DNA from: Flavobacteriales bacterium
GTDB lineage: Bacteria; Bacteroidota; Bacteroidia; Flavobacteriales_F; PHOS-HE28
Reading direction: 5' to 3'
Length of the DNA: 64,000 nt
NCBI GenBank assembly: GCA_016705545.1
Contig: JADIYA010000020.1
Span: 15,413 to 79,412 of the forward strand
Under the pieces are notes generated by a model. The model had not been told where the DNA came from and made no database searches. It worked only from the letters and a program-made list of their open reading frames with translations. A program made the position numbers and the translations under genes. Positions 23,576 to 39,754 of the stretch are shown in pieces. The number at the start of each line of letters is the position of its first letter. Positions within the stretch are counted from its first letter, which is position 1.

Positions 23576-25660
23576 ATGCGGATTCCCGTCTTCATAGCCC
23601 TTCTGTCCATTGCAAACGCGCTCATGGGCCAGAACCTGGACAGTTTGCGCAGCGCCTGCGCGGATCGCAGCCTACCGGACTCTGCTCGTTTCGTGGCCTG
23701 CAACGAATTGATCTGGGAAGGCTACCTGTTCAACGCGCCCGATACGGCCTACCTGCTGGCCGAACGCATGGAGTCCGAGGCGCGCGGAAAAGGGAACGAT
23801 AGGTTCGTCGCAGTGGCCATCGATGCGAAGGCCGCCACTTGGTATGTCCGTGGACAATTCGAGTCCGCCCTTGATCTGTATCGGCAATCACTGGCCATTC
23901 ACCGGCGCCTCGGCGACAGAAACCGGCAGGCGGATGTGATGACCAACATGGCCGCCATGCATTCCTTCCTCGGCGCGAAGGACACGGCGCTGGTCCTCTA
24001 TGAACAAGGGCTCCACGTTCATGAGGAGCTCAAGGACTCCGCTTCCATCGCCAACGACCTCAACAGCATCGGCACCATCCACATGATGCGGGGAGACCAC
24101 GCGAGAGCGGTGGACCTGTATTCCCGTAGCCTGAAAATCCAAGAGGCGCTTCGCAATGATCGTGGCTTGGCCACCACCTTCATCAATATCGGCTCCGTGT
24201 ATATGGCTCAAGGCGACTACGGCAAGGCGCTGGAGCAATACGGCAGCGCCTCTGAGCTAGCCGAAAAACTGAATGATGCCCACCTCACCGCCAAGGCCTT
24301 GATCGAAATGGGCACCTGTCACCAGGAGCTCGGTGATCTTGAACGCGCTTTGCGCCACTTCAATCGCAGCCTGGACCTGCGCAACTCACTGGATGACCAG
24401 CATGGCATCGCGACCGCCTTGAACAGGATCGGCGAGGTCCAACGGAGGCAAGGGAGCACCGATGCGGCCATCGCCACTTTCCGGCGGAGCGCCGCGATCG
24501 CCGAGGAACAGGGTTCGCCGTTCAACGGAGGCACAGCATGGGCGGGCATCGGCAACGCGTTCCTGGATGAAAGCCGATATGTCGATGCATTGAATGCCGC
24601 GCAGACTGCGCTTCCGCTCGCTGAAGGAGCAGAGGAGCTATCGCTGCACCGCGATGTGCTCCACCTCACCTACCGTGCGCTGAAGGAGCTCGGTCGGGAG
24701 CGCGAGGCCCTTGCCGTGCTGGAGAAGAGCATCGTGCTCAGCGATAGCTTGATGCGCGAGGAGAACCAGCGAGAGATCCTTCGCCATGAGTACGCCTATG
24801 CTTACGAGCAGCAGGCGATGGCAGACAGCCTTCGCAACCAAGAGGAAAAACTCGCAACAGCTGCTGCCCACCGTGAGCGCCGCAATCTCTTGCTCGGCAG
24901 CGTGGCCATCCTCTTCGTGCTCGGCCTGGCGCTGTTGGGGCGGGTGCGCTACATGGCGCGGGCGAACAAAGCCATTCTGGCAGCCCAGTCCAAGCTGGTG
25001 ATCAGCGAAAGGCAACGCGAAGCAGAGCATGTGCGCAACCGGATCGCGAGCGACATCCACGACGACCTTGGAAGCGACCTGACGAAGCTGAGCCTGCTGG
25101 GCGATGAGATGAGGCGCACGGTAGCCGACCACGCCCATGCCACCGCGAAGCTCGCGAACCGCATCGTGGAGCTCTCACGCGATGCCACCACCGCGCTCAG
25201 CGACATCGTGTGGGCCGCCGATCCCCATCAGGATACCGCCCATGGGCTCATCACGCGGTGCAGCGCCTATACCCACCGCATGCTGGATGGAACGGGCCTG
25301 CAGCAGGACCTCCGGTTCGAGCACACCGGTCCCGACCTCATGCTCGACCCGGGCACCAAGCACGATGTGTTCCTGCTGCTGAAGGAACTGGTGAACAATG
25401 CCGTGAAGCATGCTGGCGCCAAACGCATCGACGTATCGCTCACTACCGATGCGCAGCGCTTCCAATTGGCCGTTGCCGATGATGGCCTTGGCTTCGACCA
25501 CGGCGCCGTGACGCCTGGCAACGGCCTGCGCTCCATCACCAGCCGCGCCAAGCGCATCGGTGCCGCCTTCATCGTGGACACCTCGCCAGGCAAAGGCACC
25601 CGGGTAAGGGTGGATGGTACTTGGGGCCAGGCATCATCGCCCGAGGGTCCTGCTGAATGA
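23576..25660 (+). CDS. TPR-repeat sensor histidine kinase (HisKA_3 / NarX-DesK type)
   Basis: Signal/TM MRIPVFIALLSIANALMGQ; about 9 TPR-like repeats (..ALDLYRQSLAIHRRLGD.., ..AVDLYSRSLKIQEAL..); TM LLLGSVAILFVLGLALLG; H-box RIASDIHDDLGSDLT; ATPase GNGLRSITSRAKRIGAAF. Confidence 0.88.
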   Translation: MRIPVFIALLSIANALMGQNLDSLRSACADRSLPDSARFVACNELIWEGYLFNAPDTAYLLAERMESEARGKGNDRFVAVAIDAKAATWYVRGQFESALDLYRQSLAIHRRLGDRNRQADVMTNMAAMHSFLGAKDTALVLYEQGLHVHEELKDSASIANDLNSIGTIHMMRGDHARAVDLYSRSLKIQEALRNDRGLATTFINIGSVYMAQGDYGKALEQYGSASELAEKLNDAHLTAKALIEMGTCHQELGDLERALRHFNRSLDLRNSLDDQHGIATALNRIGEVQRRQGSTDAAIATFRRSAAIAEEQGSPFNGGTAWAGIGNAFLDESRYVDALNAAQTALPLAEGAEELSLHRDVLHLTYRALKELGREREALAVLEKSIVLSDSLMREENQREILRHEYAYAYEQQAMADSLRNQEEKLATAAAHRERRNLLLGSVAILFVLGLALLGRVRYMARANKAILAAQSKLVISERQREAEHVRNRIASDIHDDLGSDLTKLSLLGDEMRRTVADHAHATAKLANRIVELSRDATTALSDIVWAADPHQDTAHGLITRCSAYTHRMLDGTGLQQDLRFEHTGPDLMLDPGTKHDVFLLLKELVNNAVKHAGAKRIDVSLTTDAQRFQLAVADDGLGFDHGAVTPGNGLRSITSRAKRIGAAFIVDTSPGKGTRVRVDGTWGQASSPEGPAE

Positions 25661-25706: not shown

Positions 25707-27575
25707 ATGGCATATCTCCGAATCCTGCTGTTGGCCCTTGGCTGGGCGTCAATCACGGCAGCCCGCTCCCAGGCAAGCGAAATGGACAGCCTGCAACAAG
25801 TCCTGAAGTCGACCCCCATAACCGGGTCCTTGAAGGACACTACCCTCGCCCGATGGCACACGGAGCTTGCGGCCATGCTGAGCAAAGCAGGTGAACGCGA
25901 CAGCGCAAGCACGCACGCACAAGCGGCCATCGCCATGCTTGTTCCCTTGTCCAAGCGCTTCAATCAAGAACGAAAGGTCCATCATCTCCTTGCGGTCGCC
26001 AATCGGCACGCCGGAAGGCTCCACTACTTCGGGAGCCGATATGCCGAGAGCTTGGAGCATATGCAGGTGGCTCATCGTCATGCACTGCAAGCCATGGACA
26101 CCGTGGAACAGGGTCGCAGTCTTCTCTACATGGCGTATTGCTTCCGGGAGATGAGTGACACACAGCAAGCACTCGACTACACGCGCCGGGCCATCGCGGT
26201 GCTATCGAATACCTCTGCCCGGTCGGATCTTGGAACCTCAATCATGAATCTGGGCGGCATCTACTCCAATCAAGGCGTGCTCGACAGTGCGACGCATTAC
26301 TTCCGTCGGGCGCTGTACGTGTTCCAAGGCATCGAATCCCGATCACAGATCGCAGCCGCCATGCTGAACATGGCCGAAGCCTTCAATAACACCGGCCAAC
26401 ACGACTCCGCGCACTACTACCTGGATTTGGCCGCGCCATTCGCGCCGGCAATGAGCCCTCCGGCCCAAATTCGGTACAGCGGCATGATGGGCAGGTCGCT
26501 GGTCATGCGCAAGCGCTTCACGGAAGGATTGGCGAAGCTGGAGGAGGCTGAGGAGATGGCCGATGGCAATCCATCGGACCTCGCCGTGATCCTGCATGTG
26601 AAAGCGCTCGCCTATGCAGGCTTGCACGACATGCCCGCTGCGATGGCGGCATTGCGCGCGGGTGATGATGCGACGGTCGAGGACCTCGACCTCGAGAAAG
26701 TGCAGGAGGTGACTGCCTTGCGCATGACCTTCGAGCAGGAGCGCGAAGCGGCGCTCGCTCAGGAACGCATCGTCGAGGAGCAGGAGCGTCGTAAGCTCGC
26801 ATACGCCGCGTCGGCACTGCTGGGCATCGCCGTCGTTCTGCTCCTTGCGCTTGCCTGGATGCGCTCCCGATCGGCACGAGCCCTTCGTCTCAAGCATGAA
26901 GAGTTGCTCCGCGCCCAAGAGAAGCTCGTGCAAAGCGAGAAGCGGCGCGAAGCCGAGCAGGTGCGCACGCGGATCGCGCGCGATATCCACGACGACATGG
27001 GCGGTGAATTGACCAAGATCCGCCTGTTCGGAGGTGAGGCCATGCACCTCTTGTGGAGCGATCCCGCACAGGCGGGCGCCGCCGTGGAGCGCATGGCGCG
27101 CTCGGCGCAGCTGGCGAGCGATTCCCTGCGCGACATCGTATGGGCCACTGATCCGCATTATGACACCAAGCAAGGAACATTGGACCATGCGCGCGAACTG
27201 ATCCAGCGCATGCTGGAGGGCAGCGGTCCGCAATACACGATGGACCTGCGGCTCGATGGTCCCGATGGCCCGGTGGACACCGTTTGGAAGCAGAACCTCA
27301 TACGTATCCTCAAAGAAGCGCTGAACAATGCCCTGAAGCATGCGGAGGCTTCACGCATCGCGGTGTCAATAGCGCTTTCCGATGAGGGCTATCGTCTTTC
27401 CGTGCAAGATGATGGCCGCGGCCTTGACTCTTCCGGGTCGGGCGGCGGCAATGGCCTTCGGAACATGCGGGCCAGGGCCGCGAGCATGGGCGCGCGCTTC
27501 GATACGAGCACCCCGCCCGAAGGCGGATGCCGTATCGCGTTGCAAGGCACAGCGTTGGTTCCGGCATACCACTAA
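25707..27575 (+). CDS. second TPR-repeat sensor histidine kinase (HisKA_3 type)
   Basis: MAYLRILLLALGWASITAARSQA; TPR repeats; TM ASALLGIAVVLLLALAW; H-box RIARDIHDDMGGELT; ATPase GNGLRNMRARAASMGARF. Confidence 0.88.
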   Translation: MAYLRILLLALGWASITAARSQASEMDSLQQVLKSTPITGSLKDTTLARWHTELAAMLSKAGERDSASTHAQAAIAMLVPLSKRFNQERKVHHLLAVANRHAGRLHYFGSRYAESLEHMQVAHRHALQAMDTVEQGRSLLYMAYCFREMSDTQQALDYTRRAIAVLSNTSARSDLGTSIMNLGGIYSNQGVLDSATHYFRRALYVFQGIESRSQIAAAMLNMAEAFNNTGQHDSAHYYLDLAAPFAPAMSPPAQIRYSGMMGRSLVMRKRFTEGLAKLEEAEEMADGNPSDLAVILHVKALAYAGLHDMPAAMAALRAGDDATVEDLDLEKVQEVTALRMTFEQEREAALAQERIVEEQERRKLAYAASALLGIAVVLLLALAWMRSRSARALRLKHEELLRAQEKLVQSEKRREAEQVRTRIARDIHDDMGGELTKIRLFGGEAMHLLWSDPAQAGAAVERMARSAQLASDSLRDIVWATDPHYDTKQGTLDHARELIQRMLEGSGPQYTMDLRLDGPDGPVDTVWKQNLIRILKEALNNALKHAEASRIAVSIALSDEGYRLSVQDDGRGLDSSGSGGGNGLRNMRARAASMGARFDTSTPPEGGCRIALQGTALVPAYH

Positions 27576-27583
27576 TGTGGTAT
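27566..27583 (+). promoter_or_regulatory. palindrome copy b: ATACCAC-TAAT-GTGGTAT
   Basis: Perfect inverted repeat. The spacer contains the stop codon of kinase 2. It lies 173 nt upstream of the response-regulator ATG. Confidence 0.55.
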
Positions 27584-27755
27584 TCCACCGAAGGGAGGCG
27601 GCGTGTTGCTTCGGCGTCAACATATCCTTTCCTCCGCATGATGTTCTGTGCGATGGCGATCGCGCCTTCGCCCTGAAGGTCTTGGGCGCTTGCTGGTTCG
27701 GTGCCAACGGTTAGCTTAGGCAGCGATTCCGGATACGTGTGCCCGGACCTTGCGC

Positions 27756-28397
27756 ATGAGCGAATCGAACATCCGTGTCATCATCGTAGAGGACGACACT
27801 GAGATCCGAGATTTGATGCGGCGGTCCTTGGAGCGAGAGGCTGGGCTCCGTGTGGTTGGCTTGTTCGGCGATGCCGAAGGCTTCCTGGAGCGCTTCGAGG
27901 AGCTGGAGCCGGACGTGGTGCTGATGGATATCGGCTTGCCGGACATGAGCGGCATCGAGTGCGTGGCCAAGGCGAAGCCCATGCGCCCGCAGACCCAATT
28001 CCTCATGAGCACGGTCTTCGAGAATCCGGCATTCATCTTCCAGGCCTTGTGCGCCGGTGCAACGGGCTACCTGGTGAAGAATGCCGGACAGGAGCAATTG
28101 GCCATCGCCGTTCGCGAGCTGCACGAGGGCGGCTCCCCCATGTCATCGACCATCGCGCGGCTGGTGGTGGACTCCTTCCAGAACGGCGTGAAGACAAGGA
28201 TCCAGGACCACGCCCTCACGGATCGGGAAAAGGGCATCTTGGACCAATTGGCCCAAGGCCTGATGTACAAGGAGATCGCCGCCAAGACGGGCATCAGCAC
28301 CGAGACCGTGCGCAAGCACGTGCGCAACATCTACGAGAAGCTGCAGGTGGGCTCCCGCATGGAGGCCATCCGGAAGGTGTACCCCAACGGCTACTGA
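27756..28397 (+). CDS. NarL/LuxR-family response regulator
   Basis: Receiver IRVIIVEDD...DVVLMDIGLPDMSGIE...; LuxR HTH LTDREKGILDQLAQGLMYKEIAAKTGISTETVRKHVRNIYEKLQV. Confidence 0.92.
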   Translation: MSESNIRVIIVEDDTEIRDLMRRSLEREAGLRVVGLFGDAEGFLERFEELEPDVVLMDIGLPDMSGIECVAKAKPMRPQTQFLMSTVFENPAFIFQALCAGATGYLVKNAGQEQLAIAVRELHEGGSPMSSTIARLVVDSFQNGVKTRIQDHALTDREKGILDQLAQGLMYKEIAAKTGISTETVRKHVRNIYEKLQVGSRMEAIRKVYPNGY

Positions 28398-28404: not shown

Positions 28405-28422
28405 CTACTACTGACGTGGTAT
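28405..28422 (+). promoter_or_regulatory. palindrome copy c: CTACTAC-TGAC-GTGGTAT
   Basis: 8 nt after the regulator stop and about 60 nt before the ATG of the barrel gene. The left arm differs from the consensus at two positions; one change is a C-to-T that keeps G-U pairing in RNA. Confidence 0.5.
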
Positions 28423-28483: not shown

Positions 28484-30193
28484 ATGCTCAGCGTTCGACA
28501 AGCAGTCAATCGGCTCAAGGGGGCATTGCTCCTTTCCGGCTTGCTGGCACATGCCACGAGCCCGGCTCAGGACCTCGGGCAGATCGGCAACAGGAAGCCC
28601 TTCGCGCTGAGCGGCAGCCTCTCGCTGCAAGGGGGCCCTTACTTCTACAGCGGCGACGGCACGGCGCGCAACCTGCCCTACTTCTGGAACAGCACGGGCA
28701 CATTGACGTTGTCGTTGTGGGGCTGGCAGGCGCCATTCAGCTACTCGGTGGGCTCACAGGAGCGCTCGTGGACCCAGCCATTCAACCGATACGGCGTCAG
28801 CCCCTATTACAAATGGATCAAGCTGCATCTCGGCTTCCGCAGCATGCGCTTCAATCCTTACACCTTCGCCGGCCTTCAGTTCTACGGCGCAGGCGTGGAG
28901 CTACAGCCAAGGGGATTCCGCTTCTCTGCTTTTTACGGACGCTTCAACAAGCCGATCGCTCAGGACACCTTGGGGTCGATCATCCCCGTACCCGCATACC
29001 GGCGCATGGGCATGGGCGTGAAGATCGGGGTGGGCAGCCGCCGGACGTTCGTTGATCTGATGGTGTTCCGAGCTGTGGATGACACCGCCTCCATCCCGGA
29101 GGTCTCAGGCAACCGCAGCATCGCGCCGAAGGAGAACATCGCCGTGGGGCTCAGCGGACGCATCCCGCTGAGCAAGAAGCTCAGTTGGGACTTCGATGGC
29201 GGTGCCAGCGCCGTCACGGATGATGTGCGAGCGCCCGTGATGGAAGGCACCGATTTGCCTCGCTTCTCGCAAGGGATCTTCACCCCTCGGCTCACTACGC
29301 GACTGCTCTTCGCAGGCAACACCAGCCTTCGGTGGAACAGCCGATACATGGATATGCGCCTGCTCTACAAGGAAGTGGAGCCCAACTACCGCTCACTCGG
29401 CGCATTTTACCAGCAGACCGACATCCGCTCGGTGACCGTGGAGCCGACGGTGCGAATAATGAACGGCAAGCTGCGCGTGAGCGGGAGCTATGGCCTGCAG
29501 CAGGACAACATACGCGGCACCAAGGTGACCACTTCCGTGCGCCGCATCGGATCGGCCAGTGCCAACTGGAACCCGGGCCGAAGCTATGCCCTCGATGCAA
29601 GCTTCTCCAATTACGGCATCGCTCAAGAAGCTGGCCTTCGCGTGCTGAACGATACGTTCCGGGTCGCGCAAGTGAACCGCGTGTACTCCTTATCGCAGCG
29701 GGTGACCTTGATCAACAAGGTGCGGACCTGGACCGTGATGCTGACTGGCGGCTACCAGCAGCTGGTGGACCTGAACCCCTTCGGCACCTTCTCCAGCGCA
29801 GAGAACGAGGTGATGTACGCGAACCTCCACATCGGCCGCATCCGCATGCGCGATAACCTGATGGTGAACGGCGGCCTCAACGCCAACCGGAACAGCACCA
29901 TCGGCGGCACGTTCCTGCTCGTTGGTCCTTCGCTCGGCTTCTCCCGGCCATTGGCCAAGCAGAAGCTCATGGTCGCGCTCTCAGCCAGCTACAACAAAGC
30001 CCTGCAGGAAGGGCGCGATGCGGGCACCACGGTGAACGCCAACCACACGCTCCAATACCGCGTGGGCAAAGCGCACCGCTTGCAACTCACCATCAGCGCC
30101 CTGCAGAACAAGACCTCCTTCGTTGCCGCACGTGAATTCACCGAAGTACGGATCATGGGCGGCTATGTGCTCACCTTCCAAACAAAGTCCTGA
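28484..30193 (+). CDS. outer-membrane beta-barrel protein of unknown family (porin-like)
   Basis: ATG at 28484 gives MLSVRQAVNRLKGALLLSGLLAHATSPAQ. Many amphipathic strands rich in aromatic residues (FRFSAFYGRF, LRWNSRYMDMRLLYKEV, YALDASFSNYGI). The stop is 3 nt before the next ATG. Confidence 0.6.
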   Translation: MLSVRQAVNRLKGALLLSGLLAHATSPAQDLGQIGNRKPFALSGSLSLQGGPYFYSGDGTARNLPYFWNSTGTLTLSLWGWQAPFSYSVGSQERSWTQPFNRYGVSPYYKWIKLHLGFRSMRFNPYTFAGLQFYGAGVELQPRGFRFSAFYGRFNKPIAQDTLGSIIPVPAYRRMGMGVKIGVGSRRTFVDLMVFRAVDDTASIPEVSGNRSIAPKENIAVGLSGRIPLSKKLSWDFDGGASAVTDDVRAPVMEGTDLPRFSQGIFTPRLTTRLLFAGNTSLRWNSRYMDMRLLYKEVEPNYRSLGAFYQQTDIRSVTVEPTVRIMNGKLRVSGSYGLQQDNIRGTKVTTSVRRIGSASANWNPGRSYALDASFSNYGIAQEAGLRVLNDTFRVAQVNRVYSLSQRVTLINKVRTWTVMLTGGYQQLVDLNPFGTFSSAENEVMYANLHIGRIRMRDNLMVNGGLNANRNSTIGGTFLLVGPSLGFSRPLAKQKLMVALSASYNKALQEGRDAGTTVNANHTLQYRVGKAHRLQLTISALQNKTSFVAAREFTEVRIMGGYVLTFQTKS

Positions 30194-30196
30194 TCC

Positions 30197-33100
30197 ATGC
30201 TCATCCGGACCATCAAGCGATCACTGGCCAGCACAACGGCCCTGCTCCTCGGCCTCATCGCTGCTGCCCAGGGCAGTTATCCGATGACGATCAACCCCGT
30301 GATCCTGCCTCCCTATTCCCCGAGTATCGCCACCTACTTCAGCAGCCAGACCAACGTCGCCTTCATCATCAGCAACAGCACCTCGACCACATATCAGGTG
30401 TACTTGGCCGGGTCAGTGCGCAGTGTGCCCAACGAAGAGATCTCCGCCACGGTCGAGGGTGGGCAGCCATGGAGCGCGCCTCCTTTGATCGTAACGCCTG
30501 GCAGCAACTATTTCACTGGCGAGACCCTGCAGCCCATCCTGAATGCAATCAACGGGAATCCGGCCACCATCGTAGGGTTGGATGAGGAGCAGCTCCGACT
30601 CGGGGTTATCCCGGAGGGGGAATATGAATTGTGCCTAAAAGTGTACGACTATACGAGCCCGGAGACGCAGCTTTCGGAGCTCGGCTGCGTCGGCTTCTCC
30701 ATCCGGGAGGGTGAACCTCCTGTGCCGCTGACCCCTACTTGCTGGGACGACGGCACCGGCGAGATGGTGACGCCGCAATCGCCGCAGTTCATCAACTTCA
30801 ACTGGATCCTGCCGGGCGGCACGCCGCCGGGCGCCACCATCAGCTACGCATTCCGCCTGGTGCGCATCGACAATCCTTCCAACGCGCAAGCCGCCTTGGA
30901 AACCAGTACCGATGTGGTTTATGAAGACCTGGTGATGATGAACCAGCTCTCCTATACGCAGATGATGCCGGCCCTGGAGCCAGGCAGGATGTACGCGTGG
31001 TGGGTAAGGGCCATCCCATTCCCTGAATCGGCCATGGTGTTCCGCAACGACGGCTACATGCGGCCCTGTACGTTCACCTACGCAGAGCATTCGGGAACAG
31101 CCTTCTCCCTCACTTTCCCTCTTCAACAGGACACACTGCCATGGGACCTCATGCCGATCATGGCGCGATTCGAGCCGCATGCCCCGCCGGACGATGAGCG
31201 CACGACCGGGAAATTCTGGAGCAGGCTGGACCTGTACCAGGACGCCGCATTCCTGAATACGACTTTCCGGCACACCCAATCGAATGAGATCGATTGGGCT
31301 CAGGGCTACTACCGCTCACAGCTCGAGTTGCTGGATGAACCCCTGACTTCACAGAGGAGCAAGCACGTCACATCAACATCTACACGAACAACCCAACGCC
31401 GGATGGCCGTTTCAAGCGCGGTTCCAGCTACGCGCTCTCCGCCGATCTCCGCATCAAGGACCTCGCTGGCATGGATGCCCGATACGGTGACGTCGAGGGG
31501 ATCTTCGTTTCCGGCATGGGAAAGCCCAAGCCGCAATCACCGGCGCCCAATGCCGTGATCCCGAAGAATGGCGGGGACACGCTGGTGAGCGGTTTCGCTC
31601 CGATCAGGCTCCGCTTCCAAACTGCAGAGCCCCCCATGGCGCTCCGCCCGCCATTCCCCATCCGCATCCTTTATGGCTCGAATGCTCCAACGCAGACCCA
31701 AGGGCAAGCGCATGAGCGATGGCGGCTGGAGGTATCACGATCAGCGACGATGGCCAGTCCGATACTCACGAGCAGCGTGGAGCTAGGGCCCGTTCAGCTG
31801 CTCAACGATGCCTGTGATGACAACTGCTTCATCGATCAGTTCTACAAGCAGGATTCCGTGACCTTCACGCCGACAGACACGGGCACCTACTACTGGCGCG
31901 TCTCCTGGATGAAGGATCCGACCTCTGCGGTCGGTGAGACCTATCACGACGGACCCGTCCGCATGTTCCGCATCACGGGAAATCCAGCTCCCGCGACACC
32001 GGATGAAGAACCGGAGCGCCCGCGTGAATGCGTCACCATTTGCCGTGGCGCACGCACCCCGCTCGAGCAGCAGATACCAGCCAGCACTGTAATCGCAGGT
32101 GATACCGTGAAGGTCGGTCTGTTCGCCATGCGTGTATCGCAGATCACCTGGGCAGGCGGCAGTGCCAGTGGCGAGGGCGTCATCCCGGTTCCATTCATGA
32201 ATTGCCCCTTGCGCGTCTCCTTCACGAACGTGCGCATCAATGCGAGCAAAAACCTCTATGATGGTGAGGTCCTTGGATTGTACGATAACGAGAGCATCGT
32301 TCCGGCAGCGTGGCGCACAGGTGGCGGGCTCGCTGCGGGCTTCAGTCCGAGCGCGGTGGAGAACATCGACAACTACTTGAACGCAGCTGGCCGCCTCGTG
32401 GCACAGATGAGCATGAACTCGCCAATGGGCCTGCCCATCGGGATTGCCACGGATGTGCCAGGTGGCCGCTTCACGGTGGGGATCGTCGGTATGCGGTTCA
32501 CCGACACGGTGGCCGTGATGAACGCGATGATGAGCGTGCCCGTGCCCGAACTGGGCTTCAACTTCGGGCTGGGCGCCTCTGAGCAGGTATTCCACCCCGA
32601 TGGGGTGGGATGCCCTGAGCGTGACGCCCTGCTATACCTGGTTGACGATGTGCGCGTCGGAATCGGCGAGGATACGCTCGTGGTGCGCTCAACGCGCTTC
32701 GAACCGGGCAACTACATCAACGTGGTGGATTCGGGAACATTCGCCGCGTGGGATTGCCGGGGATTCCGTGCGCTGCAACTCGATGCGCAATGGCGATTCA
32801 GCAGCGATCATCTGCGCGAGGACATGCCCAATGGCGATTCCGGCCCGAGCAAGATCATCGCCTCATTGAAGACACGCACAGGGCGAGGCGGTTTCATGGG
32901 ACGTGTGGATTTCAACAAGCCCTTCCATATCGACGGAGCTGAAGGATGGGGCTTTGATGTACAAGAAGCCTGGATGGACCTGGCCAGCTACGCGAATCCT
33001 CCGGACATGAGCTTCTCCGCCGAGGTGGCCCAGCATGTGGGGCTCACGGATGGCTCTGGCGCCGCCGTGCCCGCTTGGCGCGGATTCTACCTGAAGCGCG

Positions 33101-36100
33101 CTATGCTTCGTCTGCCGGATCAAGTGAAACGCTTCGGGAGCACAGAGCGCATCGCGGCCTTGGTGGATGATCTTGCAATCACCGGCTCACAGGTCACCGG
33201 CAGCATCAAGCTCGCGAGCCTCATCCTGCCTGACGAGGGCAATCTGGGCGGATGGTCCTTCTCTGTGGACACGCTTCGATTGGACATCGTGATGAACTCG
33301 TTCCATCAGGCCGGCATGAAGGGCCGCATGCGCACCTCCGTGAGCCCGACATTGCTGGACTACTCTGCAATCTGGCAACAGAGCCTCTCCACCTCGGACC
33401 ACTGGATCCAATTCCTCATTCAACCACAGGACGATCTGAGCGTTCCGTTCCTCTTCGCGAACATCAATCTGGAAGAGACCAGCACGGTCGTGGCGACGCT
33501 CGGGCATGCGCAACTCGGCAGCTACGCGAAAGCGACGCTGAACGGGAGCATCAGCATCACCGCTCCAGCGGCGATACCGGTCTCGCTCAGCTTCGCCGAT
33601 ATCGAGTTCGAGAACCTTTGGTTCGGTACGCAAGCGCCTTACACCAACATCGATAGCAGCGCGGTGTTCTCACTCGCCAGCCCGCAGAAATGGATGGGCT
33701 CCGAAGAGGACGATGACATGCCAACCGTTCCGGGTGGAAGCGCGGGTGGCTTTCCCGTCAGCATCACGCGCGTCACGGGTGAACGCACCACCATCGATGG
33801 CAAGCCAGCCGCAGGCATCGCGTACGACATCAACCTGAAGCTCACCGGCACCACCAACATCTTCATCGCCACCACGCGCGTGGCCACGTTAGGCGTGCTC
33901 AACACGAGCAACATCCACCAATGGGGCGACCATGAGATGCGCCTCGACTCCATCGGTGTAACGGGCGGCACAGGAGCGGTGCACATCGAAGGCGGTCTGA
34001 AATGGTATCGCGACAGCCCCACCTATGGGAACGGCATCAAAGGGGGCTTGCGCGCGCGCTTCCTCAACGGCAAGGTTGACGTGGAAGCGAATGCGCAGTT
34101 CGGCACCACCGGCGGCAACAAGTATTGGTACATCGACGCCATGGCCGCGAAGCAGGGCGGCTTCAATCGCCCATCTGCATTCACGGTGTACGGCTTCGGC
34201 GGCGCCGCCTGGTACCACATGAGGCGAACCAGCGAGCCTCCCGGGGCGAATGCGATCATGGAGCAGGAGCTGGCGAACCTCCAAGACCCGAATTTCGAGC
34301 CAGGACTGACGGTCTCGGGCATGACGTTCGTGCCGGATGCGGGCATCGGCTTCGGCTTCAAGGCCACCGTGGTATTCGGCGATCCCAGCAGCGGCTACGC
34401 TTACAACGGCGACCTGAGCGCGGGCGCGCAGTTCGCTTCGGAGGGCGGTATCCAGAGCCTCTTCCTCGAAGGCGACCTCTTCGTGATGCACAAACGCGAA
34501 GAAGAGGGTCGAGTACCCATCCGCGGGCACATGGAAATGGAATACGATTTCGCCGAGGATGTATTCACGGCGCGCGCGGAGATGTTCGTGGACGTAGGCC
34601 CGAACGTGGTCTACGGCCTCGGCGCCAACAAATCGGCTGGAGAGCTGGAACTCTACATCGGCCCGGAGAACTGGCACCTCTACATCGGAACGCCGCAAGC
34701 GCGCGTGGGCCTGCAATTCGTGGATCTCTTCTCCGGCAACTTCTATTTCATGGTGGGCGATGACATCCCCGGCGTCCCGGACCCCCCCGCCGCCCTTTTG
34801 GATGTGATGCCCGCCAGCTACCGGTCGCGACCAGACATCAGCAACGCCAGCGGCATCGCCTTCGGCGCCAGCGTTCCATTCGCGTCGCGCGGCGACTTCC
34901 TCCTGTTCCGTTATGCGCTCAATGGCGATATCGGCTTCGATGTGCTCTTCCGCAGCTCCGAGGAGATGCAATGCGATGGCATCGATGATCCCGGCATCGG
35001 GCCTTTCTATGCGAATGGCCAGGTCTATGGCTACGTGAATGCCTCTGTGAGCCTCTATGTGGACGTCCGCTTCTTCTCCGGTGAGTACCACCTCTTCTCC
35101 ATCGGCGTGTCGGGGCTCTTTCAATGCGGCTTCGCCAATCCGACCTGGGCGCGCGGGTTCGCACACGGCAACTATAGCATCCTGCACGGCGCCATCAGCG
35201 GATCGGCCACGGTGCCCTTCTTCATCGGGGAGGCCTGCCTTCCGCCGGGCGGCGATGTCCTGGCCGGGCTGGATCCCATTGGCGACCTGGTGCCCCACCA
35301 CCTCGAGGGGCTGCTCCCGACATGCTCCAACGCCGCTGTTTGCGGTGTGGATTGCGGAGCAGAGCCGGAAGCCATCTTCAACATGAAAGCGGAGACTCCC
35401 TTCGAAGTGAAGGAGCAGCTATCCAACGGCAGCTTCAAGACGCACACGTTCAGGCTGCGTATCGAGACCTTCCGCTTGGCGAAGGCGAGCGGCAATGTCA
35501 CAGTTGCTTGCAGCAATCCTGAATTCAACAGCGCCAAGGACCGCATGAGCATGCGGCCCACCGCCTACCTCGCGCCCACCATTGAATACACCTGCACGCT
35601 GAAGGTGGCTGCGGAGAAGTTGGACGCGAATGGAATCTGGCAACCCGCGCGCAACACCGACGGCCAGGCCGTGACTTGGCAGAAGATCCACCGCTTCAAG
35701 ACCAATACCGGGATAGAGGAGCTCCGTCCAGAGGATGTTGATGTCAGCTATCCCTTCTACCGACAGCGCTACTTGCTCCAGGATGAATGCCGGAGCGGCA
35801 TCATCATCTGCAAGTCGGATATCAGCGATCAGCCGGTATTCAAGGCGCCTCCCGGCAGACGTCGTGTCTTCCGAGCGGTATTCATGCCCGTGACGGGGGG
35901 AACACCCGTTGAGCGGACGGCACAGGTGACGCATGGCGGACAGACACGCATCGCATTCGCTATACCACCGCTGGTGAACAGCCGCACATACGCGCTGCGC
36001 ATCGTCGCGCGCGACGAGATTGATCTGAGCACAATGGGCATCGCTGTTGGCAGCCCTGCCGCATCCGGGGGGGGCTCAACAAGCCCGTTCGCCGCACCCA

Positions 36101-37143
36101 TCACAAGCGGCGTCGCTGTGGCGAGCGCTGGCAGCACCAGCCTCGCGAATGGCATGGTGCTCCTCCGCAGGCAAGTGCTACAGGGCTATACGCTGCGCGC
36201 TGATGAGCGAATCACCTACATCTATCACTTCCGCACCTCCGGATTCAGCACGCTCTCGGCCAAGCTGGCGTCACTTACGAATGCAGCGACGACGCGGACT
36301 TCCTCGGTCACGAATCCTGTGCAGGAATACCTGCTGCCCGCCTTCAGCGGTGAGCGGTTCGATGCGTACGACCTCGTTGGCTTCACCTACGGTTTGCAAG
36401 GCAGCATCACGCAGCCTCCCTTGATCACCGCTGTCGATGCGAATACGGACACCTGGATGAAGAACTGGGCGAAGCCCTTGATCTACGACTATTATGCAGC
36501 GATCAAAGCAGCGAATTGCAGCGATGAGGACCTTGAGCGCAGCAGGACAGTGATCAGCAACGGGTTCTTCACGCGCACCATCATCAGCGACTCGCCGGAT
36601 AACATCGGCATGCCTCCGTACCGCACGGTGGCCATCAACCCCTACTACACGCCTGATCCGCAGCTCGCCACTAGTGAGACAGCGCCATCTCCGCTGCCAA
36701 TCGGCATTGGTGTGAACTCCAGCACAGCTGGCGGCACAGTAATTCCTACCCCGCTATACAAGGTAGGAACAGGGAAGCAGGTTGCGATGGATTACGCACG
36801 CATGCAGACCATTACCACGGATGTGATCGCTACCTGCGGGCCCGTAAATCCCGTCGTTGATGGACAAGGAGAGGATATGGGTGGCATGCCCGAACCCTTG
36901 CGCAGCAAGGTGCAAGCGTTCCAAGCCTCGAGTTACAAGCTGCTCTATAAGGGCAACTACGGATTGAAACTCACCTTCCGGCTTCCTCTGGCCTGTGGTG
37001 CATTCGTAGGCGAACCCGGCACCGTAGCGCCGACCGGCACCATTGGCACGCTCATCTACAATCACCCGACCGGGCCCAACCCGCCGATCGGCATCTCTCC
37101 GACTGGGCCACTAGGACCTGGTTCGGGCACCATACAATATTGA
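30197..37143 (+). CDS. giant secreted protein (about 2315 aa) of unknown function; frame broken at the C run near 31340
   Basis: Signal peptide MLIRTIKRSLASTTALLLGLIAAAQG. ORF 30197-31558 reads sensibly up to ...YYRSQLELLDEP. The frame of ORF 31471-37143 is open from 31339 (TPDFTEEQARHINIYTNNPTPDGRFKRGSSYALSADLRIKDLAGMDARYG...), so a 1-nt indel at GAACCCCTG joins them. No T9SS C-terminal domain is visible. Confidence 0.7.
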
Positions 37144-37145
37144 CC

Positions 37146-39203
37146 ATGGTCCGCAACTCGATCATTCTCATAGCAGCCGCGCTGCTGGCAACCAGTGCGC
37201 AAGGCCAGAGCTTCCATACTATCGCCCGCAATACGGCCGATTCCGTAGTGCTGCGCTGGGCGCCAGCTAGCGTTGAAGCATGGCTCATGCACAACACGTT
37301 CGGCTACCGCGTGGAGCGCCTTGAGATCACCCCGACGACCTCGCGGCGCTCGAAGGCCGAACGAATCGGGCCTGACAGCATCCGCCCGCTCCCGCTCGAT
37401 GGCTTCATCGCGCGATTCCCCAAGGATCATCCTTCTGCCGGGGCCATGGCGCAGATGCTCCATGGGAATGGCGAACAGCTGCCCTCCGATGCGAACAACA
37501 TCATGGGCGCAGCGATAACGGCCGATGGGCAGCGCATGCGTTGGTCCGTCTGCCTCCTGCTCTCGGACCTGGATCCCGCAATGGCCCAAGCCGCCGGCCT
37601 GCGTTGCGTGGATCGCACGGCGAAACCTGGTGCCACCTACTTGTACCGTGTGATCGCCCTGCATCCTCAGCATGGCGACACCGCAATCGTTGGCGTGAAC
37701 CGCGCCATGGTCGAGCCGCTGCCGGACGGTCCGGAACTGAGGGCCGAGGAACTGGAGCGCCGCGTGCAGATCGGCTGGCTCATGCCCTCAGGGCTCGCGG
37801 CCTTCAGCGGATACTGGGTGGAGCGATCGCCCGACGGTCGAACGTGGAGCCGCCTGCATCGCACGCCATTCGTGCCGTCTCGCGCCGAGGGCGACAAAAG
37901 CGATTTCACCTGGTTCAACGACACTTCCCTCACGCGCAACTATCAGGCGCATCATTACCGGGTGCTGGGCATCACGCCCTTCGGCGAAGTGAGCGGATCA
38001 GGACCCACGACCATCGCCATGGGCAGGGACCGTACACCGCCAACAGCTCCGGTTCTGAAGGGCGCGAAGGACGAAAAGGGCAGGCTCGTGGTGCATTGGG
38101 AACAATCCCAGAGCAGCGCTGATCTGCGCGGGTACCGTGTTGAAAAGGCCGTTGAAACCAATGGCGCTTACTGGTCATTGCACACCGATCTCCTTCCAAT
38201 AGACGCGCGGAGCTTCACGGATACATCGCGCTTCTTGGCCGGCGGCAACCACTACCGGGTGGCGGCGCTGGACACGGCAGGCAATATCGCCTATTCCATG
38301 AGCGGCTATGGCTTCCTCATGGACAGCATCGCACCCGCACCGCCTATTGGCCTGATCGGGTCAATCGATACCAGTGGCGTGGTCACTGTTCGTTGGCGGT
38401 TGGGCAAGGAACCGGACATCCTCGGCTACCGCGTGTTCTTCGCGAATGCCACGGACCATGAGTTCAACAACCAGAGCCCCGAACCCTTCGCGGACACTGT
38501 CTTCACCGACACGCTGCAGATGAACACGCTCACCAAGCGCATCCATTACAAGGTGGTAGCCGTGGACCGCAACTACAACCACAGCCCGATGAGCACCATG
38601 CTCACCCTCACTCGGCCCGACCTGATCCCGCCCGTAGCACCGGTGTTCAAGAACTATGTGGTGAGCGACACCGCCGTGGTGATCCACTTCATCCCCAGCA
38701 GCAGCAAGGATGTCGCGCGACACCGACTCATGCGCAAATCACCGGGTGAAGCATCGTGGAAAGAGGTGCTCCTGCTTACCGTGTCAGACAAGCAACGCGT
38801 GTGGACCGACCGCGATGTGCGCGGACCGGCCCACTACAGCTATACCATGGTGGCGGTGGACAGCGCGGGCAATGCTTCAACAGAAGCGCTTCCGCTCGCC
38901 GTGCGCGTGCATGAGCGCCTGAAGCGTGCGGAGGTCACCGGAGTGAAGGCGTTGCGAATCGACGAACGCACCGTGCAGGTGAGTTGGAGCCAGCCGCCCG
39001 GTACCGTTCACCATTATCTGGTGCTTCGCGCCAAGGACGGTGGCGCGGCCATGCCCGTAGGCTCGGCGCCCGGCAGCTCATCATCGTTCGCAGATATCCG
39101 ACTTGCGGGCAAAGGCACGTACACCTACACCGTGCAGGCCGTGTACGACGATGGAGCGGCGTCCGCGGTATCGATCCGAAGCGCGCCTTTGGATATGCGC
39201 TGA
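37146..39203 (+). CDS. secreted multi-FN3-like domain protein
   Basis: Signal peptide MVRNSIILIAAALLATSAQGQ. At least six repeats of the pattern ...V.L.W......I.GYRV.R........W......P......F.D.......Y.Y.V.A.D..GN.S. The ATG is 2 nt after the stop of the giant gene. Confidence 0.7.
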   Translation: MVRNSIILIAAALLATSAQGQSFHTIARNTADSVVLRWAPASVEAWLMHNTFGYRVERLEITPTTSRRSKAERIGPDSIRPLPLDGFIARFPKDHPSAGAMAQMLHGNGEQLPSDANNIMGAAITADGQRMRWSVCLLLSDLDPAMAQAAGLRCVDRTAKPGATYLYRVIALHPQHGDTAIVGVNRAMVEPLPDGPELRAEELERRVQIGWLMPSGLAAFSGYWVERSPDGRTWSRLHRTPFVPSRAEGDKSDFTWFNDTSLTRNYQAHHYRVLGITPFGEVSGSGPTTIAMGRDRTPPTAPVLKGAKDEKGRLVVHWEQSQSSADLRGYRVEKAVETNGAYWSLHTDLLPIDARSFTDTSRFLAGGNHYRVAALDTAGNIAYSMSGYGFLMDSIAPAPPIGLIGSIDTSGVVTVRWRLGKEPDILGYRVFFANATDHEFNNQSPEPFADTVFTDTLQMNTLTKRIHYKVVAVDRNYNHSPMSTMLTLTRPDLIPPVAPVFKNYVVSDTAVVIHFIPSSSKDVARHRLMRKSPGEASWKEVLLLTVSDKQRVWTDRDVRGPAHYSYTMVAVDSAGNASTEALPLAVRVHERLKRAEVTGVKALRIDERTVQVSWSQPPGTVHHYLVLRAKDGGAAMPVGSAPGSSSSFADIRLAGKGTYTYTVQAVYDDGAASAVSIRSAPLDMR

Positions 39204-39210: not shown

Positions 39211-39228
39211 ATACTACCAACGTGGTAT
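39211..39228 (+). promoter_or_regulatory. palindrome copy d: ATACTAC-CAAC-GTGGTAT
   Basis: 8 nt after the FN3 gene stop and 56 nt before the next ATG. There is one C-to-T change in the left arm (G-U compatible). Confidence 0.5.
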
Positions 39229-39283: not shown

Positions 39284-39754
39284 ATGCGCATCGTGCTTCT
39301 CCTCATTCCGCTTTCCGTACCACTTCTGGCCCGAACGCAAGACGTGGTGGCCACCGGCGGCGGGTACCACACCGGACCCGGCACTGCCATCTCCTACACC
39401 ATCGGCGAGCCGGTGATCGCCACGGTGGGCAATGCCAGCACCACACTCACGCAGGGCTTCCAGCAGCCGTGGGCTGACATCAACACGATAGTGGATGACG
39501 CCGCAACGGATGGACCAGGCATCAACGTGTATCCGAACCCTGTGCGCCACATCCTGCACATCGCCATGGAAGGCGCGCCCGATGGGCACCACTATGTGCT
39601 GCACGATGCCGAGGGCAGGCAAGTCACCGATGGCCGCATCGCATGCACCATCACCGACCTCGACATGGAACCCACGCGAGCGGCAGCTACTACCCGCGCG
39701 TGCTGGGCCCGAACGACAACAGTCCGCGCCTTCAAAATCTTCGTCACCCACTAA
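39284..39754 (+). CDS. small secreted protein with T9SS C-terminal sorting domain (probably with local indels)
   Basis: MRIVLLLIPLSVPLLARTQ; module ATGGGYHTGPGTAISYTIGEPV...LTQGFQQPW; CTD start INVYPNPVRHILHIAM and end ..VRAFKIFVTH. The segment 39665-39720 reads like a CTD (ASGSYYPRVLGPNDNS) only in another frame, so two compensating indels are suspected. Confidence 0.55.
   Translation: MRIVLLLIPLSVPLLARTQDVVATGGGYHTGPGTAISYTIGEPVIATVGNASTTLTQGFQQPWADINTIVDDAATDGPGINVYPNPVRHILHIAMEGAPDGHHYVLHDAEGRQVTDGRIACTITDLDMEPTRAAATTRACWARTTTVRAFKIFVTH

Follow-up and report, generated by a model that had tools for sequence, protein, structure and literature searches.

A TANFOR-class giant protein with a wide barrel and an FN3-chain partner: a candidate outer-membrane module of Bacteroidota

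Three adjoining genes of a Flavobacteriales bacterium are read here as a single TANFOR-class outer-membrane module, in which a barrel and an FN3-chain protein would export or anchor a giant protein and palindromic sites would control the whole, a reading that we regard as roughly an even bet. The genes lie in the window, by which we mean the whole stretch of 64,000 nucleotides that was analysed, and ORF calls and inspection agree with the original prediction of a plus-strand operon with gaps of 3 nt and 2 nt, each product having its own signal peptide:

28484-30193, plus strand: barrel gene, ATG start, 569 aa (the frame can also be opened from a TTG at 28445)
30197-37143, plus strand: giant gene (TANFOR-class), 2315 aa after repair by one C
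37146-39203, plus strand: FN3-chain gene, 685 aa

By inspection, each of the three proteins opens with a basic n-region, followed by a hydrophobic core and an A-Q cleavage motif, and homologues are SignalP-positive in Supplemental Data 1 of Jana et al.

The giant ORF is split in the window (30197-31558 and 31471-37143) at a homopolymer run:

31340-31343, plus strand: C-run short of one C, read as CCCC in the window

Adding one C restores a single ORF of 2315 aa that ends in ...GPGSGTIQY, the repair having already been proposed before this analysis. The extra C (CCCCC) is found in L010, a contig that is 98.4% identical, as well as in contigs assembled from four independent metagenomes of wastewater or sludge, and one homologue (P0001) is an intact 2315-aa protein with 99% identity to the repaired giant. 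Between 28.4 and 43.4 kb all other frame-breaking indels are absent from the comparison assemblies; the 12 kb that follow the C-run hold five further window indels, the four other frame-breaking ones among them, and none of the five occurs in the comparison assemblies. The frameshift is thus an assembly error and not the mark of a pseudogene, and the giant gene is intact in nature. A true pseudogene, or a gene made phase-variable by its C-run, would fit the window itself, which has CCCC and needs one C more, but is hardly credible given CCCCC in four independent metagenome assemblies and in L010, and given that the five further indels, likewise missing elsewhere, point to errors in the source assembly.

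The giant can be placed in a family through its N-terminus, and two of its regions stand out:

30281..31087, plus strand: N-terminal TANFOR module and FN3-like domain (aa 29-297)
32053..35652, plus strand: most conserved core of the giant (aa 620-1819, from the conservation profile)

The first of these is the portion common to all TANFOR proteins. The NCBIfam model TIGR02542 matches aa 36-163 with an E-value of 7.9e-6 and 25.9 bits, which falls below the NCBI naming cut-off of 67 bits; the same model matches 14 of 18 family members and 35 of 72 N-termini, with a best E-value of 5.4e-14. Furthermore, hhalign aligns the giant with P0150, a protein named TANFOR in its source, over aa 29-297 (probability 99.9, E 5e-33). 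As judged from these sequence profiles, the giant is a TANFOR-class protein with a divergent TANFOR module, a likeness that had been offered earlier as unverified. The earlier label of "no assignable function" is too pessimistic on family, and fair on biochemical function. Profile searches gave no confident match to any enzyme or adhesin family that has been characterised, and against Pfam nothing reached threshold, a single PPC match falling below the cut-off. Beyond the TANFOR module the giant is all-beta and has no known relatives; its core has many strands of 12-21 residues. The AlphaFold2 model of the core has a low pTM (0.40; pLDDT 75.1), and Foldseek returned only LptD, ApoB100 and SlpA, all at low TM (<=0.21), so that the core has no confident structural relative; given the weak LptD and ApoB100 matches, the core itself could lie in the membrane or bind lipid.

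Jana, Salomon & Bosis (2020, PMC7073777) proposed that TANFOR-domain proteins (NCBIfam TIGR02542) are polymorphic toxins in Bacteroidetes. The giant shares with the published proteins an N-terminal Sec signal followed by the TANFOR module, a large size and a neighbourhood with FN3, PKD and T9SS-tail proteins, and its TANFOR module and Sec signal would suit a polymorphic toxin of this class with an unrecognised C-terminal toxin domain. In T. forsythia, moreover, small restriction-endonuclease-like and GIY-YIG genes lie between the TANFOR gene and the gene for a protein of ~664 aa. We nevertheless regard a toxin as very improbable. No toxin domain was detected in the giant, and its body is instead a conserved all-beta core found in a subfamily only. 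The C-terminus is homologous throughout the family, with identity declining gradually and no cassette swap or boundary, and the C-terminal additions seen in relatives are LRR or Ig-like domains. There is no immunity-like gene; the next gene 3' of the giant is the conserved FN3 gene. Since in this lineage the body is conserved and all-beta and lacks a toxin domain, the likeliest role of the giant is that of a structure for surface contact or adhesion, and not of a toxin. An association of TANFOR proteins with the outer membrane is supported by the detection of one from T. forsythia (WP_052449025.1) in vesicle proteomes (PMC10682907).

The two partners are clearer in structure. The sequence of the barrel has zero matches in Pfam, NCBIfam and PDB, and its family comprises 2728 cluster representatives at E<=1e-10. 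The AlphaFold2 model bears out the expected outer-membrane barrel, with 26 strands (pLDDT 82.8, pTM 0.71) preceded by the signal peptide and with neither a plug nor a periplasmic domain, and the C-terminus (...GGYVLTFQTKS) is by inspection similar to an OMP beta-signal. The closest PDB fold is MtrB (6r2q_B, E 1.5e-8, TMq 0.53), followed by TonB-dependent transporters and the FimD/PapC ushers; the nearest folds (MtrB, LptD-like barrels, FimD/PapC ushers) are barrels that hold or pass protein. Barrels of such width need a partner as filler, as in LptDE, MtrAB, the ushers and TonB-dependent transporters. The FN3 protein, on the other side of the giant gene, has a signal peptide and then ~6-7 FN3-like domains, with a Pfam fn3 match (E 4e-11) and PDB profile matches to the FN3 arrays of titin, RPTP and fibronectin over residues ~175-700, in keeping with the chain of FN3 modules first proposed.

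The three genes also recur together. The trio occurs in hundreds of Bacteroidota-group genomes. Among 80 related loci, drawn from GTDB species representatives of Bacteroidota, Ignavibacteriota, Chlorobiota and relatives, it is complete in 59 and always on the same strand, and 17 of the 21 incomplete loci are interrupted by contig ends; co-conservation of the three genes, by which the original prediction could have fallen, therefore stands, the FN3 protein included. The order varies (barrel-giant-FN3 in 40 loci, giant-barrel-FN3 in 13, giant-FN3-barrel in five and barrel-FN3-giant in one). Two findings speak against a fixed trio: one locus (L005) combines a giant of 3637 aa with an FN3 gene but has no barrel within 10 kb, and in the Kapaibacterium loci the FN3 partner is not detectable. 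The distribution is patchy, and some genomes have two copies. A similar layout is visible in Supplemental Data 1 of PMC7073777: T. forsythia and many TANFOR genes have a protein of 548-567 aa upstream, often with a 17-nt overlap, most such rows have a protein of ~640-670 aa downstream, FN3-annotated in many, and rows 135 and 188-214 have the layout of the trio, with an upstream protein of about 550-565 aa. In the sections consulted, Jana et al. (PMC7073777) give the upstream barrel no partner role for TANFOR proteins.

Two loci separate the TANFOR module from the remainder of the giant. The giants of L091 (Mucilaginibacter) and L093 have only profile positions ~8-292 in common with the family, and both have a full-length barrel homologue directly upstream (545 and 195 bits, respectively) and the FN3 partner directly downstream. 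The barrel and FN3 partners thus go with the TANFOR module while the body of the giant is swapped. Furthermore, in P0290 and P0301, two contigs only but from two independent assemblies, a single chain runs from a signal peptide through a TANFOR/FN3-like module into the barrel and ends in ...YAVQF, which points to direct N-terminal coupling. The proposal that the barrel is the partner of a passenger gains support from its plugless 26-strand model, from the way in which it follows the TANFOR module and from this natural fusion.

These observations also bear on the possibility that the trio is not an exporter at all but a static trans-outer-membrane complex, with either the FN3 protein or a portion of the giant held permanently in the barrel, as in LptDE and MtrAB, and serving as a conduit, a sensor or an envelope-spanning device for handling lipid or polymer, with the long beta-sheets of the giant in the periplasm. 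Such a complex would agree with the best fold of the barrel, MtrB being a sheath round a partner protein, with the only folds found for the giant core (LptD, the ApoB100 beta-belt and SlpA-type sheets) and with the reach of seven in-line FN3 domains, which judging by domain size could span the periplasm. The trio further resembles MtrCAB and LptDE in having 26 strands, no built-in plug and the need for a partner in the lumen. However, the LptD and ApoB likeness of the core is weak at TM-scores of <=0.21, no CXXCH motifs were found, and the trio has no haem-binding motifs, no LptD-type jellyroll, no LptE-like lipoprotein and no sequence similarity in the barrel. Moreover, a patchy distribution, two copies in some genomes and two-component control make the trio a poor fit for a housekeeping envelope machine, and a giant whose body is swappable while its partners stay constant looks more like cargo than like a permanent component of a machine. 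We therefore consider a static complex possible but doubtful, and return to export or anchoring of the giant as the preferred reading.

The control region and the downstream neighbour of the trio are as follows:

22693..23505, plus strand: DsbA-like thiol-disulfide oxidoreductase (Pfam DSBA, E 4.7e-43)
23524..23541, strandless: palindrome copy a, ATACCAC-GAGC-GTGGTAT, before the gene of kinase 1, with a counterpart at the same place in L001 (3114)
23543..25660, plus strand: sensor kinase 1, TPR, HisKA_3 and HATPase_c (Pfam); syntenic in L001 and L003
25614..27575, plus strand: sensor kinase 2, TPR, HisKA_3 and HATPase_c (Pfam); paralogue of kinase 1
27566..27583, strandless: palindrome copy b, between kinase 2 and the regulator gene
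27750..28397, plus strand: response regulator of NarL/FixJ type, Response_reg 7e-23 and LuxR/GerE helix-turn-helix, GerE 5e-18 (Pfam)
28405..28422, strandless: palindrome copy c, CTACTAC-TGAC-GTGGTAT, ~62 nt 5' of the barrel start codon; candidate trio operator
39211..39228, strandless: palindrome copy d, ATACTAC-CAAC-GTGGTAT, just 3' of the FN3 gene and ~56 nt before the T9SS-tail gene
39284..39754, plus strand: small secreted protein, ~156 aa, with a T9SS C-terminal sorting domain recognised via homologues

The Pfam architectures uphold the proposed upstream module of two TPR histidine kinases and one LuxR-type regulator. Direct DNA repeats (D6, D10 and D19) at an offset of 1930 nt connect kinase 2 with kinase 1, and in 13 of 40 related loci a regulator gene of the same type immediately precedes the trio. 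The palindrome ATACYAC-N4-GTGGTAT (7-4-7) marks four promoter regions, with sites at 23524, 27566, 28405 and 39211, which at <=2 mismatches give eight strand-wise matches against 0.08 expected by chance. Copies c and d bracket the trio as originally described, and both positions are kept in the majority of the related Flavobacteriales loci that were compared, with giants of 40-68% identity; copy c is found in L001 and L010 and in L011-L014, L016-L018, L022-L024, L026, L027 and L058. This conservation of position supports signal-dependent control, and from sequence the palindrome is likely the operator of the NarL-type regulator. The small T9SS-tail gene probably shares the regulon of the trio. 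Its copy in the window carries assembly indels at 39673 and 39721; Por_Secre_tail is found in its homologues (L001 19061-19534, L003 19111-19653) and in 9 of 30 downstream neighbours. The position of the DsbA-like gene is kept in L001 and L002, syntenic with the module in close relatives, and the giant has 24 cysteines and the barrel 0; the DsbA-like protein may be linked to the module.

With a T9SS-tail protein co-located, the T9SS may be involved, and the giant could be a T9SS cargo, with the barrel as its cargo-specific anchor in the manner of PorP/SprF for SprB. The T9SS-tail gene lies directly downstream with the same palindrome, and according to PMC7073777 the surroundings of TANFOR genes are enriched in Por_Secre_tail and SprB domains and T9SS is present in >95% of TANFOR genomes; T9SS export of TANFOR proteins is there a speculation of Jana et al. 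(PMC7073777). The trio does resemble the SprB/SprF pairs in that the gene for a giant Bacteroidota surface protein adjoins that of a dedicated outer-membrane protein, with T9SS-tail proteins near. However, profile searches at E<=0.01 to 0.1 detected no T9SS C-terminal domain, whether type A or B, either in the giant, for which the same had been noted by eye, or among 18 relatives. By the conservation profile, the C-terminus is the least conserved part of the giant. The PorP/SprF family is much smaller than a 26-strand, 569-aa barrel, and the barrel has no PorP/SprF match. Finally, the TANFOR-barrel fusion indicates coupling through the N-terminus. A T9SS cargo is thus improbable in our judgement.

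The export or anchoring reading has its nearest parallels elsewhere. First of all, T5b (FhaB/FhaC, CdiA/CdiB) and T5a systems likewise place a very large Sec-dependent passenger beside a dedicated outer-membrane barrel; a conserved N-terminal passenger module tracks the barrel, the remainder of the passenger being variable and able to carry toxins, and a fused passenger-barrel form exists (P0301). The trio, on the other hand, has a barrel of 26 predicted strands without POTRA domains that is not Omp85-like, a giant without a TPS (Haemagg_act) domain and an obligatory third FN3-chain subunit, and it is confined to the FCB group (Fibrobacterota-Chlorobiota-Bacteroidota). Second, the FimD/PapC chaperone-usher systems share a wide barrel (24 strands in the ushers), which is among the fold matches, and ushers pass folded Ig-like subunits where the candidate passengers of the trio are FN3/Ig-like chains; yet the trio barrel lacks the usher plug, the N- and C-terminal domains and a Pfam Usher match, and no chaperone gene accompanies the trio.

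Our best reading is that the barrel and the FN3 protein would export or anchor TANFOR-headed proteins in a manner akin to two-partner or autotransporter secretion, with a different type of barrel. Sec would carry all three products across the inner membrane, and the 569-aa protein would sit in the outer membrane as a wide 26-strand barrel that lacks a plug. The TANFOR/FN3-like module (aa 29-297) would be the part of the giant that engages the barrel, and would serve either to thread the giant out to the cell surface or to anchor it there; the barrel may export the giant and not just anchor it. The FN3 protein would act as an obligate third subunit, a strut or a filler of the lumen, and may be a stalk. 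The analysis shows the structure and intactness of the genes, the TANFOR module, a predicted barrel fold, co-conservation of the trio in shuffled orders, the fidelity of the partners to the module, the natural fusion and the conserved palindrome, whereas where the giant is located, which way it is threaded, what the FN3 protein does and whether the regulator binds are inferences. The two kinases and the NarL-type regulator would probably switch on expression, with the regulator presumably binding the 7-4-7 palindromes that precede the kinase operon, the gene of the regulator itself, the trio and the T9SS-tail gene. Since the same trio recurs in hundreds of genomes, it points to an undescribed route by which very large proteins are placed on the cell surface.

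Three adjacent plus-strand genes lie at the centre of the locus, and the reading frames called for them are as follows.

28445/28484-30193, plus strand, open reading frame of the barrel gene
30197-31558 overlapping 31471-37143, plus strand, open reading frame of the giant gene, in two frames
37140/37146-39203, plus strand, open reading frame of the FN3 gene

When ATG starts are assumed, the gaps between the genes are 3 nt and 2 nt, so that the ORF coordinates agree with the tight coupling originally predicted. One additional C in the CCCC run at 31340-31343 fuses the two halves of the giant into a single protein of 2315 aa ending in ...GPGSGTIQY, the length anticipated after repair of one indel. 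This extra C is found in L010, a related locus on a contig 98.4% identical, and in contigs of four independent wastewater/activated-sludge metagenomes, which apart from it do not differ across the 201 nt examined; in metatranscriptome runs from these studies, the locus drew nothing but short, spurious matches. Furthermore, the homologous protein P0001 is an intact 2315-aa protein with 99% identity to the repaired giant. Over the 28.4-43.4 kb compared, the same four assemblies also lack the frame breaks seen in the window at 39673, 39721, 40724 and 42360 and, likewise, an in-frame TCT difference at 42423. The frameshift in the giant is thus an assembly error, not biology. The idea of a pseudogene or a phase-variable gene was rejected on the strength of the extra C in L010 and in the four metagenome assemblies, and a real pseudogene is extremely improbable. 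Against these independent short-read assemblies of near-identical sequence, the window carries six small indels in 15 kb (28400-43400), and ORF calls elsewhere in it need to be read with caution.

The three genes travel together well beyond this genome. A scan with the giant profile over one genome per GTDB species yielded 326 relatives, and all ORFs of the best 80 loci were profile-searched for members of the trio. These 80 come from Flavobacteriales, Bacteroidales, Chitinophaga, Cytophagales, Saprospiraceae, Ignavibacteriota, Chlorobiota, Kapaibacterium and Kryptonium. All three genes occur on one strand in 59 of the best 80, which upholds the co-conservation expected of them, and in 17 of the 21 incomplete loci the contig stops on the side that matters. 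Three Kapaibacterium loci, where the FN3 partner went undetected, and one Saprospiraceae locus depart from this pattern; the exceptional locus L005 has a 3637-aa giant and an FN3 gene, with no barrel within 10 kb. Gene order among the best 80 loci varies: barrel-giant-FN3 (40 loci), giant-barrel-FN3 (13), giant-FN3-barrel (5) and barrel-FN3-giant (1). Because the set is retained despite this shuffling, gene content provides strong evidence that the trio would act as a functional unit. Some Flavobacteriales carry two divergent copies of the whole trio (L013 with L076 and L021 with L079, each pair in one MAG), the second-copy giants being about 26–27% identical to the giant of the window; no second copy was found within the 64-kb window.

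Sequence searches with the barrel protein returned no match in Pfam, NCBIfam or the PDB, and none at or above threshold in PADLOC or PHROGs. Its AlphaFold2 model, built from a 42-sequence alignment, is confident (pLDDT 82.8, pTM 0.71) and, after the signal peptide, places the entire mature chain in 26 beta-strands, with neither a plug nor a periplasmic domain. Among PDB folds, MtrB from the Mtr complex ranks first (E 1.5e-8, TMq 0.53), followed by TonB-dependent transporter barrels, SlpA and the FimD/PapC ushers. The model supports the assignment of the first product as an outer-membrane barrel. The protein contains no cysteine and ends in ...GGYVLTFQTKS. Its family varies very little in length (mostly 545-585 aa for the 150 best matches) and is large, with 3444, 2728 and 1761 representatives of 50%-identity clusters at E<=1e-3, E<=1e-10 and E<=1e-30, respectively, and it is covered by no Pfam or NCBIfam model.

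The giant, which had been likened to TANFOR proteins, does carry this module. NCBIfam model TIGR02542 matches aa 36-163 (E 7.9e-6) at 25.9 bits, under the curated cut-off of 67 bits, so that the protein is not nameable as TANFOR by NCBI. The same model is the only one to match 14 of 18 full-length relatives; of the 72 N-termini taken from related loci, it matches 35, with E down to 5.4e-14. Profile alignment of the giant family with P0150, a homologue whose source name from JGI is 'TANFOR domain-containing protein', gives a probability of 99.9 (hhalign, E 5e-33) over aa 29-297, which correspond to TANFOR plus an adjoining FN3-like domain. The giant thus belongs to a class that is named but experimentally almost untouched: nine papers in the searched literature mention TANFOR, and one of these studies the domain. 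Its N-terminus, MLIRTIKRSLASTTALLLGLIAAAQG, shows by eye the basic n-region, hydrophobic core and A-Q site of a Sec signal peptide, and homologues are SignalP positive in the supplement of Jana et al. 2020 (PMC7073777). Beyond the TANFOR module, the giant has no match at or above threshold in Pfam, NCBIfam, PADLOC or PHROGs, and PDB searches with profiles of the giant and of the module gave no match. In the model of the best-conserved stretch, aa 620-1819, the structure is all-beta and many strands are 12-21 residues long (pLDDT 75, pTM 0.40). Foldseek pairs this core with LptD, the ApoB100 beta-belt, SlpA and ushers at low TM only (<= 0.21); we read it as large antiparallel sheets and do not take these likenesses for homology. 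Of the 24 cysteines in the giant, two in the TANFOR domain, C146 and C164, are invariant, and there is no CXXCH motif. The third product begins with a signal peptide and continues as a chain of FN3-like domains, and domain matches here confirm what had been predicted.

Comparison of more divergent loci indicates which parts of this assembly are constant. In L091 (Mucilaginibacter sp. AW1-7) and L093, homology to the giant family is confined to profile positions ~8-292 and the bodies of the TANFOR proteins hold CarboxypepD_reg-type domains instead, yet each is directly flanked by a full-length barrel homologue (545, 195 bits) on the upstream side and by an FN3 partner on the downstream side. 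The giant of L092 retains the core of this family and adds a 1700-aa LRR extension, and both partners are present. The same layout appears, without comment in the sections consulted, in Supplemental Data 1 of Jana et al. (PMC7073777). The rows concerned cover T. forsythia, whose TANFOR proteins are 3078-3148 aa long with four TANFOR domains, together with Dyadobacter, Larkinella, Pedobacter, Spirosoma, Siphonobacter, Runella, Flavobacterium and Salibacter. In each, the gene listed upstream, often with an overlap of 17 nt, encodes a protein of 547-567 aa that has a signal peptide and no conserved domain, and in most a protein of about 640-670 aa, FN3-annotated in many rows, is listed downstream; in the Runella and some Pedobacter rows, the downstream protein is shorter or lies one to two genes further (PMC7073777). 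Finally, an exhaustive search of the barrel family uncovered two proteins from independent assemblies, P0290 and P0301 (949 and 968 aa), in which the barrel is preceded in a single chain by a signal peptide and a TANFOR/FN3-like module (blastp E 2e-36 to giant N-termini). Within this fusion, the barrel part spans profile positions 29-559, thus without a signal peptide of its own, and the protein ends in ...YAVQF. The 968-aa protein is encoded at 9001-11907 of locus L094, whose contig stops 188 nt past the gene. Because the divergent loci, the layout in the supplementary rows and the fusion agree, the constant partnership is that of the barrel (plus the FN3 protein) with the TANFOR head, the body of the giant being exchangeable.

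Plugless barrels of 22–26 strands, as judged from LptDE, MtrAB, ushers and TonB-dependent transporters, must have a protein inside them. Most economically, the barrel of the trio would be a dedicated outer-membrane conduit or anchor for TANFOR-headed proteins, with the FN3 chain as a third structural subunit. The logic would be that of two-partner secretion, and that of an autotransporter in the fused form, with an unrelated barrel. The original prediction of an envelope apparatus, with the barrel as anchor or exporter of a very large passenger, stands overall in its description and interpretation, while surface location and physical contact are what we infer. In T. forsythia, the TANFOR protein WP_052449025.1 was detected in vesicle proteomes (PMC10682907), which fits an outer-membrane location. 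On a broader scale, we tentatively suggest that the TANFOR module, the 26-strand barrel and the FN3 chain may constitute an unrecognised, T9SS-independent export or display pathway of the FCB group (Fibrobacterota-Chlorobiota-Bacteroidota), one that might export toxins elsewhere too. Such a pathway would resemble type V secretion with a different barrel, and the same chassis would carry adhesin-like bodies in the lineage of the window and TANFOR polymorphic toxins in other Bacteroidota.

Several known systems share features with this arrangement. First of all, in two-partner secretion (T5b), passenger and barrel genes are likewise adjacent and co-inherited, and the trio described here has a fused form as well; T5b, however, uses an Omp85-type 16-strand TpsB with POTRA domains, whereas here there are 26 strands and no periplasmic domain, and its passengers begin with a TPS (Haemagg_act) domain, whereas the giant has no such Pfam match and carries the TANFOR module instead. 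Second, MtrB has a similar barrel fold, but the CXXCH motifs of the multihaem cytochromes are absent from all three proteins of the trio, and a cytochrome conduit was rejected on this ground. Third, chaperone-usher systems rely on a plug, N- and C-terminal domains and a periplasmic chaperone, whereas no Pfam usher or chaperone match was found here and the model is plugless. Less probably, the trio would form a static plug-and-barrel conduit or an envelope-spanning device. Finally, the giant could be a T9SS-dependent cargo with a PorP/SprF-like anchor. As had been noted from the sequence, the giant lacks a T9SS C-terminal domain: neither the type A (TIGR04183/Por_Secre_tail) nor the type B (TIGR04131) sorting domain was found in it at E<=0.1, or in 18 relatives at E<=0.01. 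Nor does the barrel match the PorP/SprF family in NCBIfam or Pfam. Dependence on T9SS is thus disfavoured and looks improbable.

TANFOR proteins were proposed in 2020 as polymorphic toxins of Bacteroidota, with their export left open and T9SS speculated upon (PMC7073777). The giant shares with this class, as described there, the N-terminal TANFOR domain, the Sec signal and the proximity of T9SS-tail and FN3 proteins (here 37146-39203, and 39284-39754, whose homologues carry Por_Secre_tail). On the other hand, the class has a variable C-terminal toxin and a downstream immunity gene, and the giant locus has neither. Pfam and NCBIfam revealed no toxin family in the giant or in 18 relatives, and in eight further relatives LRR or Big_5 domains are all that the C-termini hold. 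Homology of the C-terminus extends across relatives, identity declining gradually and no cassette boundary being seen. No immunity-like gene follows the giant in the window; the conserved FN3-chain gene does, and it is likewise conserved in 59 related loci. The reading as a polymorphic toxin was rejected for this gene on the gradual loss of C-terminal identity and the presence of LRR/Ig-like additions only. Taken together, the absence of toxin domain and immunity-like gene, the homologous C-terminus and the nature of the additions make a toxin role unlikely in the lineage of the window, and a cryptic polymorphic toxin very unlikely indeed. We thus favour a surface contact or adhesion structure, which we infer for this lineage.

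The trio is preceded by a DsbA gene, by two kinases of TPR-HisKA_3-HATPase architecture that are paralogues of each other, and by a regulator of the REC-GerE (NarL/LuxR) type. The palindrome ATACYAC-N4-GTGGTAT occupies four intergenic sites in the locus, at 23524, 27566, 28405 and 39211, with eight strand-wise matches vs 0.08 expected by chance. In most of the loci checked from related Flavobacteriales (giants 40-68% identical), it recurs at three places: just 5' of the barrel, past the FN3 gene before the gene with a T9SS tail, and 5' of the kinase/regulator genes. A role of these palindromes as terminators is weak, given the 7-bp stem, the lack of a T-run behind it and the conserved positions upstream of genes. 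The palindrome is best explained as a putative operator of the NarL-type regulator, since it is a 7-4-7 inverted repeat at conserved promoter-proximal positions and such a regulator is adjacent. A single regulon would then comprise the kinase and regulator genes, the trio and the small gene with the T9SS tail.

Close relatives share the kinase/regulator set upstream and the small T9SS-tail protein downstream of the trio. In the window, the latter is a protein of ~156 aa (39284-39754, plus strand), preceded by a palindrome copy; its homologues carry a T9SS C-terminal sorting domain, and its own last strands are scrambled by the indels at 39673 and 39721, absent from four public assemblies. The next three ORFs (39758-40729, 40686-42377 and 42374-43336, plus strand) are one gene of about 1190 aa (39758-43336), split only by the assembly indels at 40724 and 42360. 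Its product has a signal peptide, Gly-X-Y repeats like those of collagen and, at the C-terminus, an intramolecular-chaperone domain (Peptidase_S74); with its PHROG tail matches, it looks like a tail fibre or tail spike, no other phage gene being nearby, and has syntenic relatives in L001 (1220 aa) and L003 (collagen plus S74). Tandem 255/273-nt repeats span 40913-41713 of this gene, and contigs of two public runs omit exactly 255 nt (41162-41418), so that repeat copy number differs between populations. A TPR-domain class III adenylate/guanylate cyclase (43382-45244, plus strand), at the same downstream position in L001, L002 and L003, may provide the locus with a second input or output for signals. 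Thiol-disulfide oxidoreductase genes recur beside the module: DsbA in the window (22693-23505, plus strand) and L001, DsbD in L005 (6744-8765) and a thioredoxin gene in the Flavobacterium rows of the supplement (PMC7073777). A divergent RND efflux operon upstream of the trio (15828-22694, minus strand), which L001 and L003 share in synteny, probably has nothing to do with the module; it comprises a transporter, a membrane-fusion protein, an outer-membrane factor (20680-22149) and a TetR-type gene, of which the outer-membrane factor was scanned in the window and the others were assigned from Pfam annotations of the L001/L003 homologues. More distant loci have a TIG/NHL/PKD protein directly 5' of the barrel and hybrid TPR-kinase-AraC regulators nearby. 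The TIG/NHL (with or without PKD) beta-propeller genes lie at 6455-8272 in L006, 6978-10004 in L008 and 8202-10004 in L009, overlapping the barrel by 4 nt in the last two. Their product may be a fourth subunit, and it may be the counterpart of the PKD lipoprotein that, in the rows of Jana et al. (PMC7073777), stands upstream of the toxin-bearing TANFOR subclass (Tenacibaculum, Aquimarina and Cellulophaga), which has a protein of about 750-800 aa downstream.

In the literature searched, we came across no account that treats barrel, TANFOR protein and FN3 protein as one system. The TANFOR head accompanies a dedicated 26-strand barrel and an FN3 chain in Bacteroidota, Ignavibacteriota, Chlorobiota and related lineages, in an association that survives exchange of the body and includes one case of fusion. 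The trio is thus a concrete and testable candidate for the crossing of the outer membrane by giant proteins, or for their anchoring there, and cultured carriers for genetics exist in Tannerella forsythia, Mucilaginibacter, Dyadobacter, Pedobacter and Spirosoma. If true, a phylum that matters in gut, mouth, soil and wastewater would gain a further route of secretion or display.
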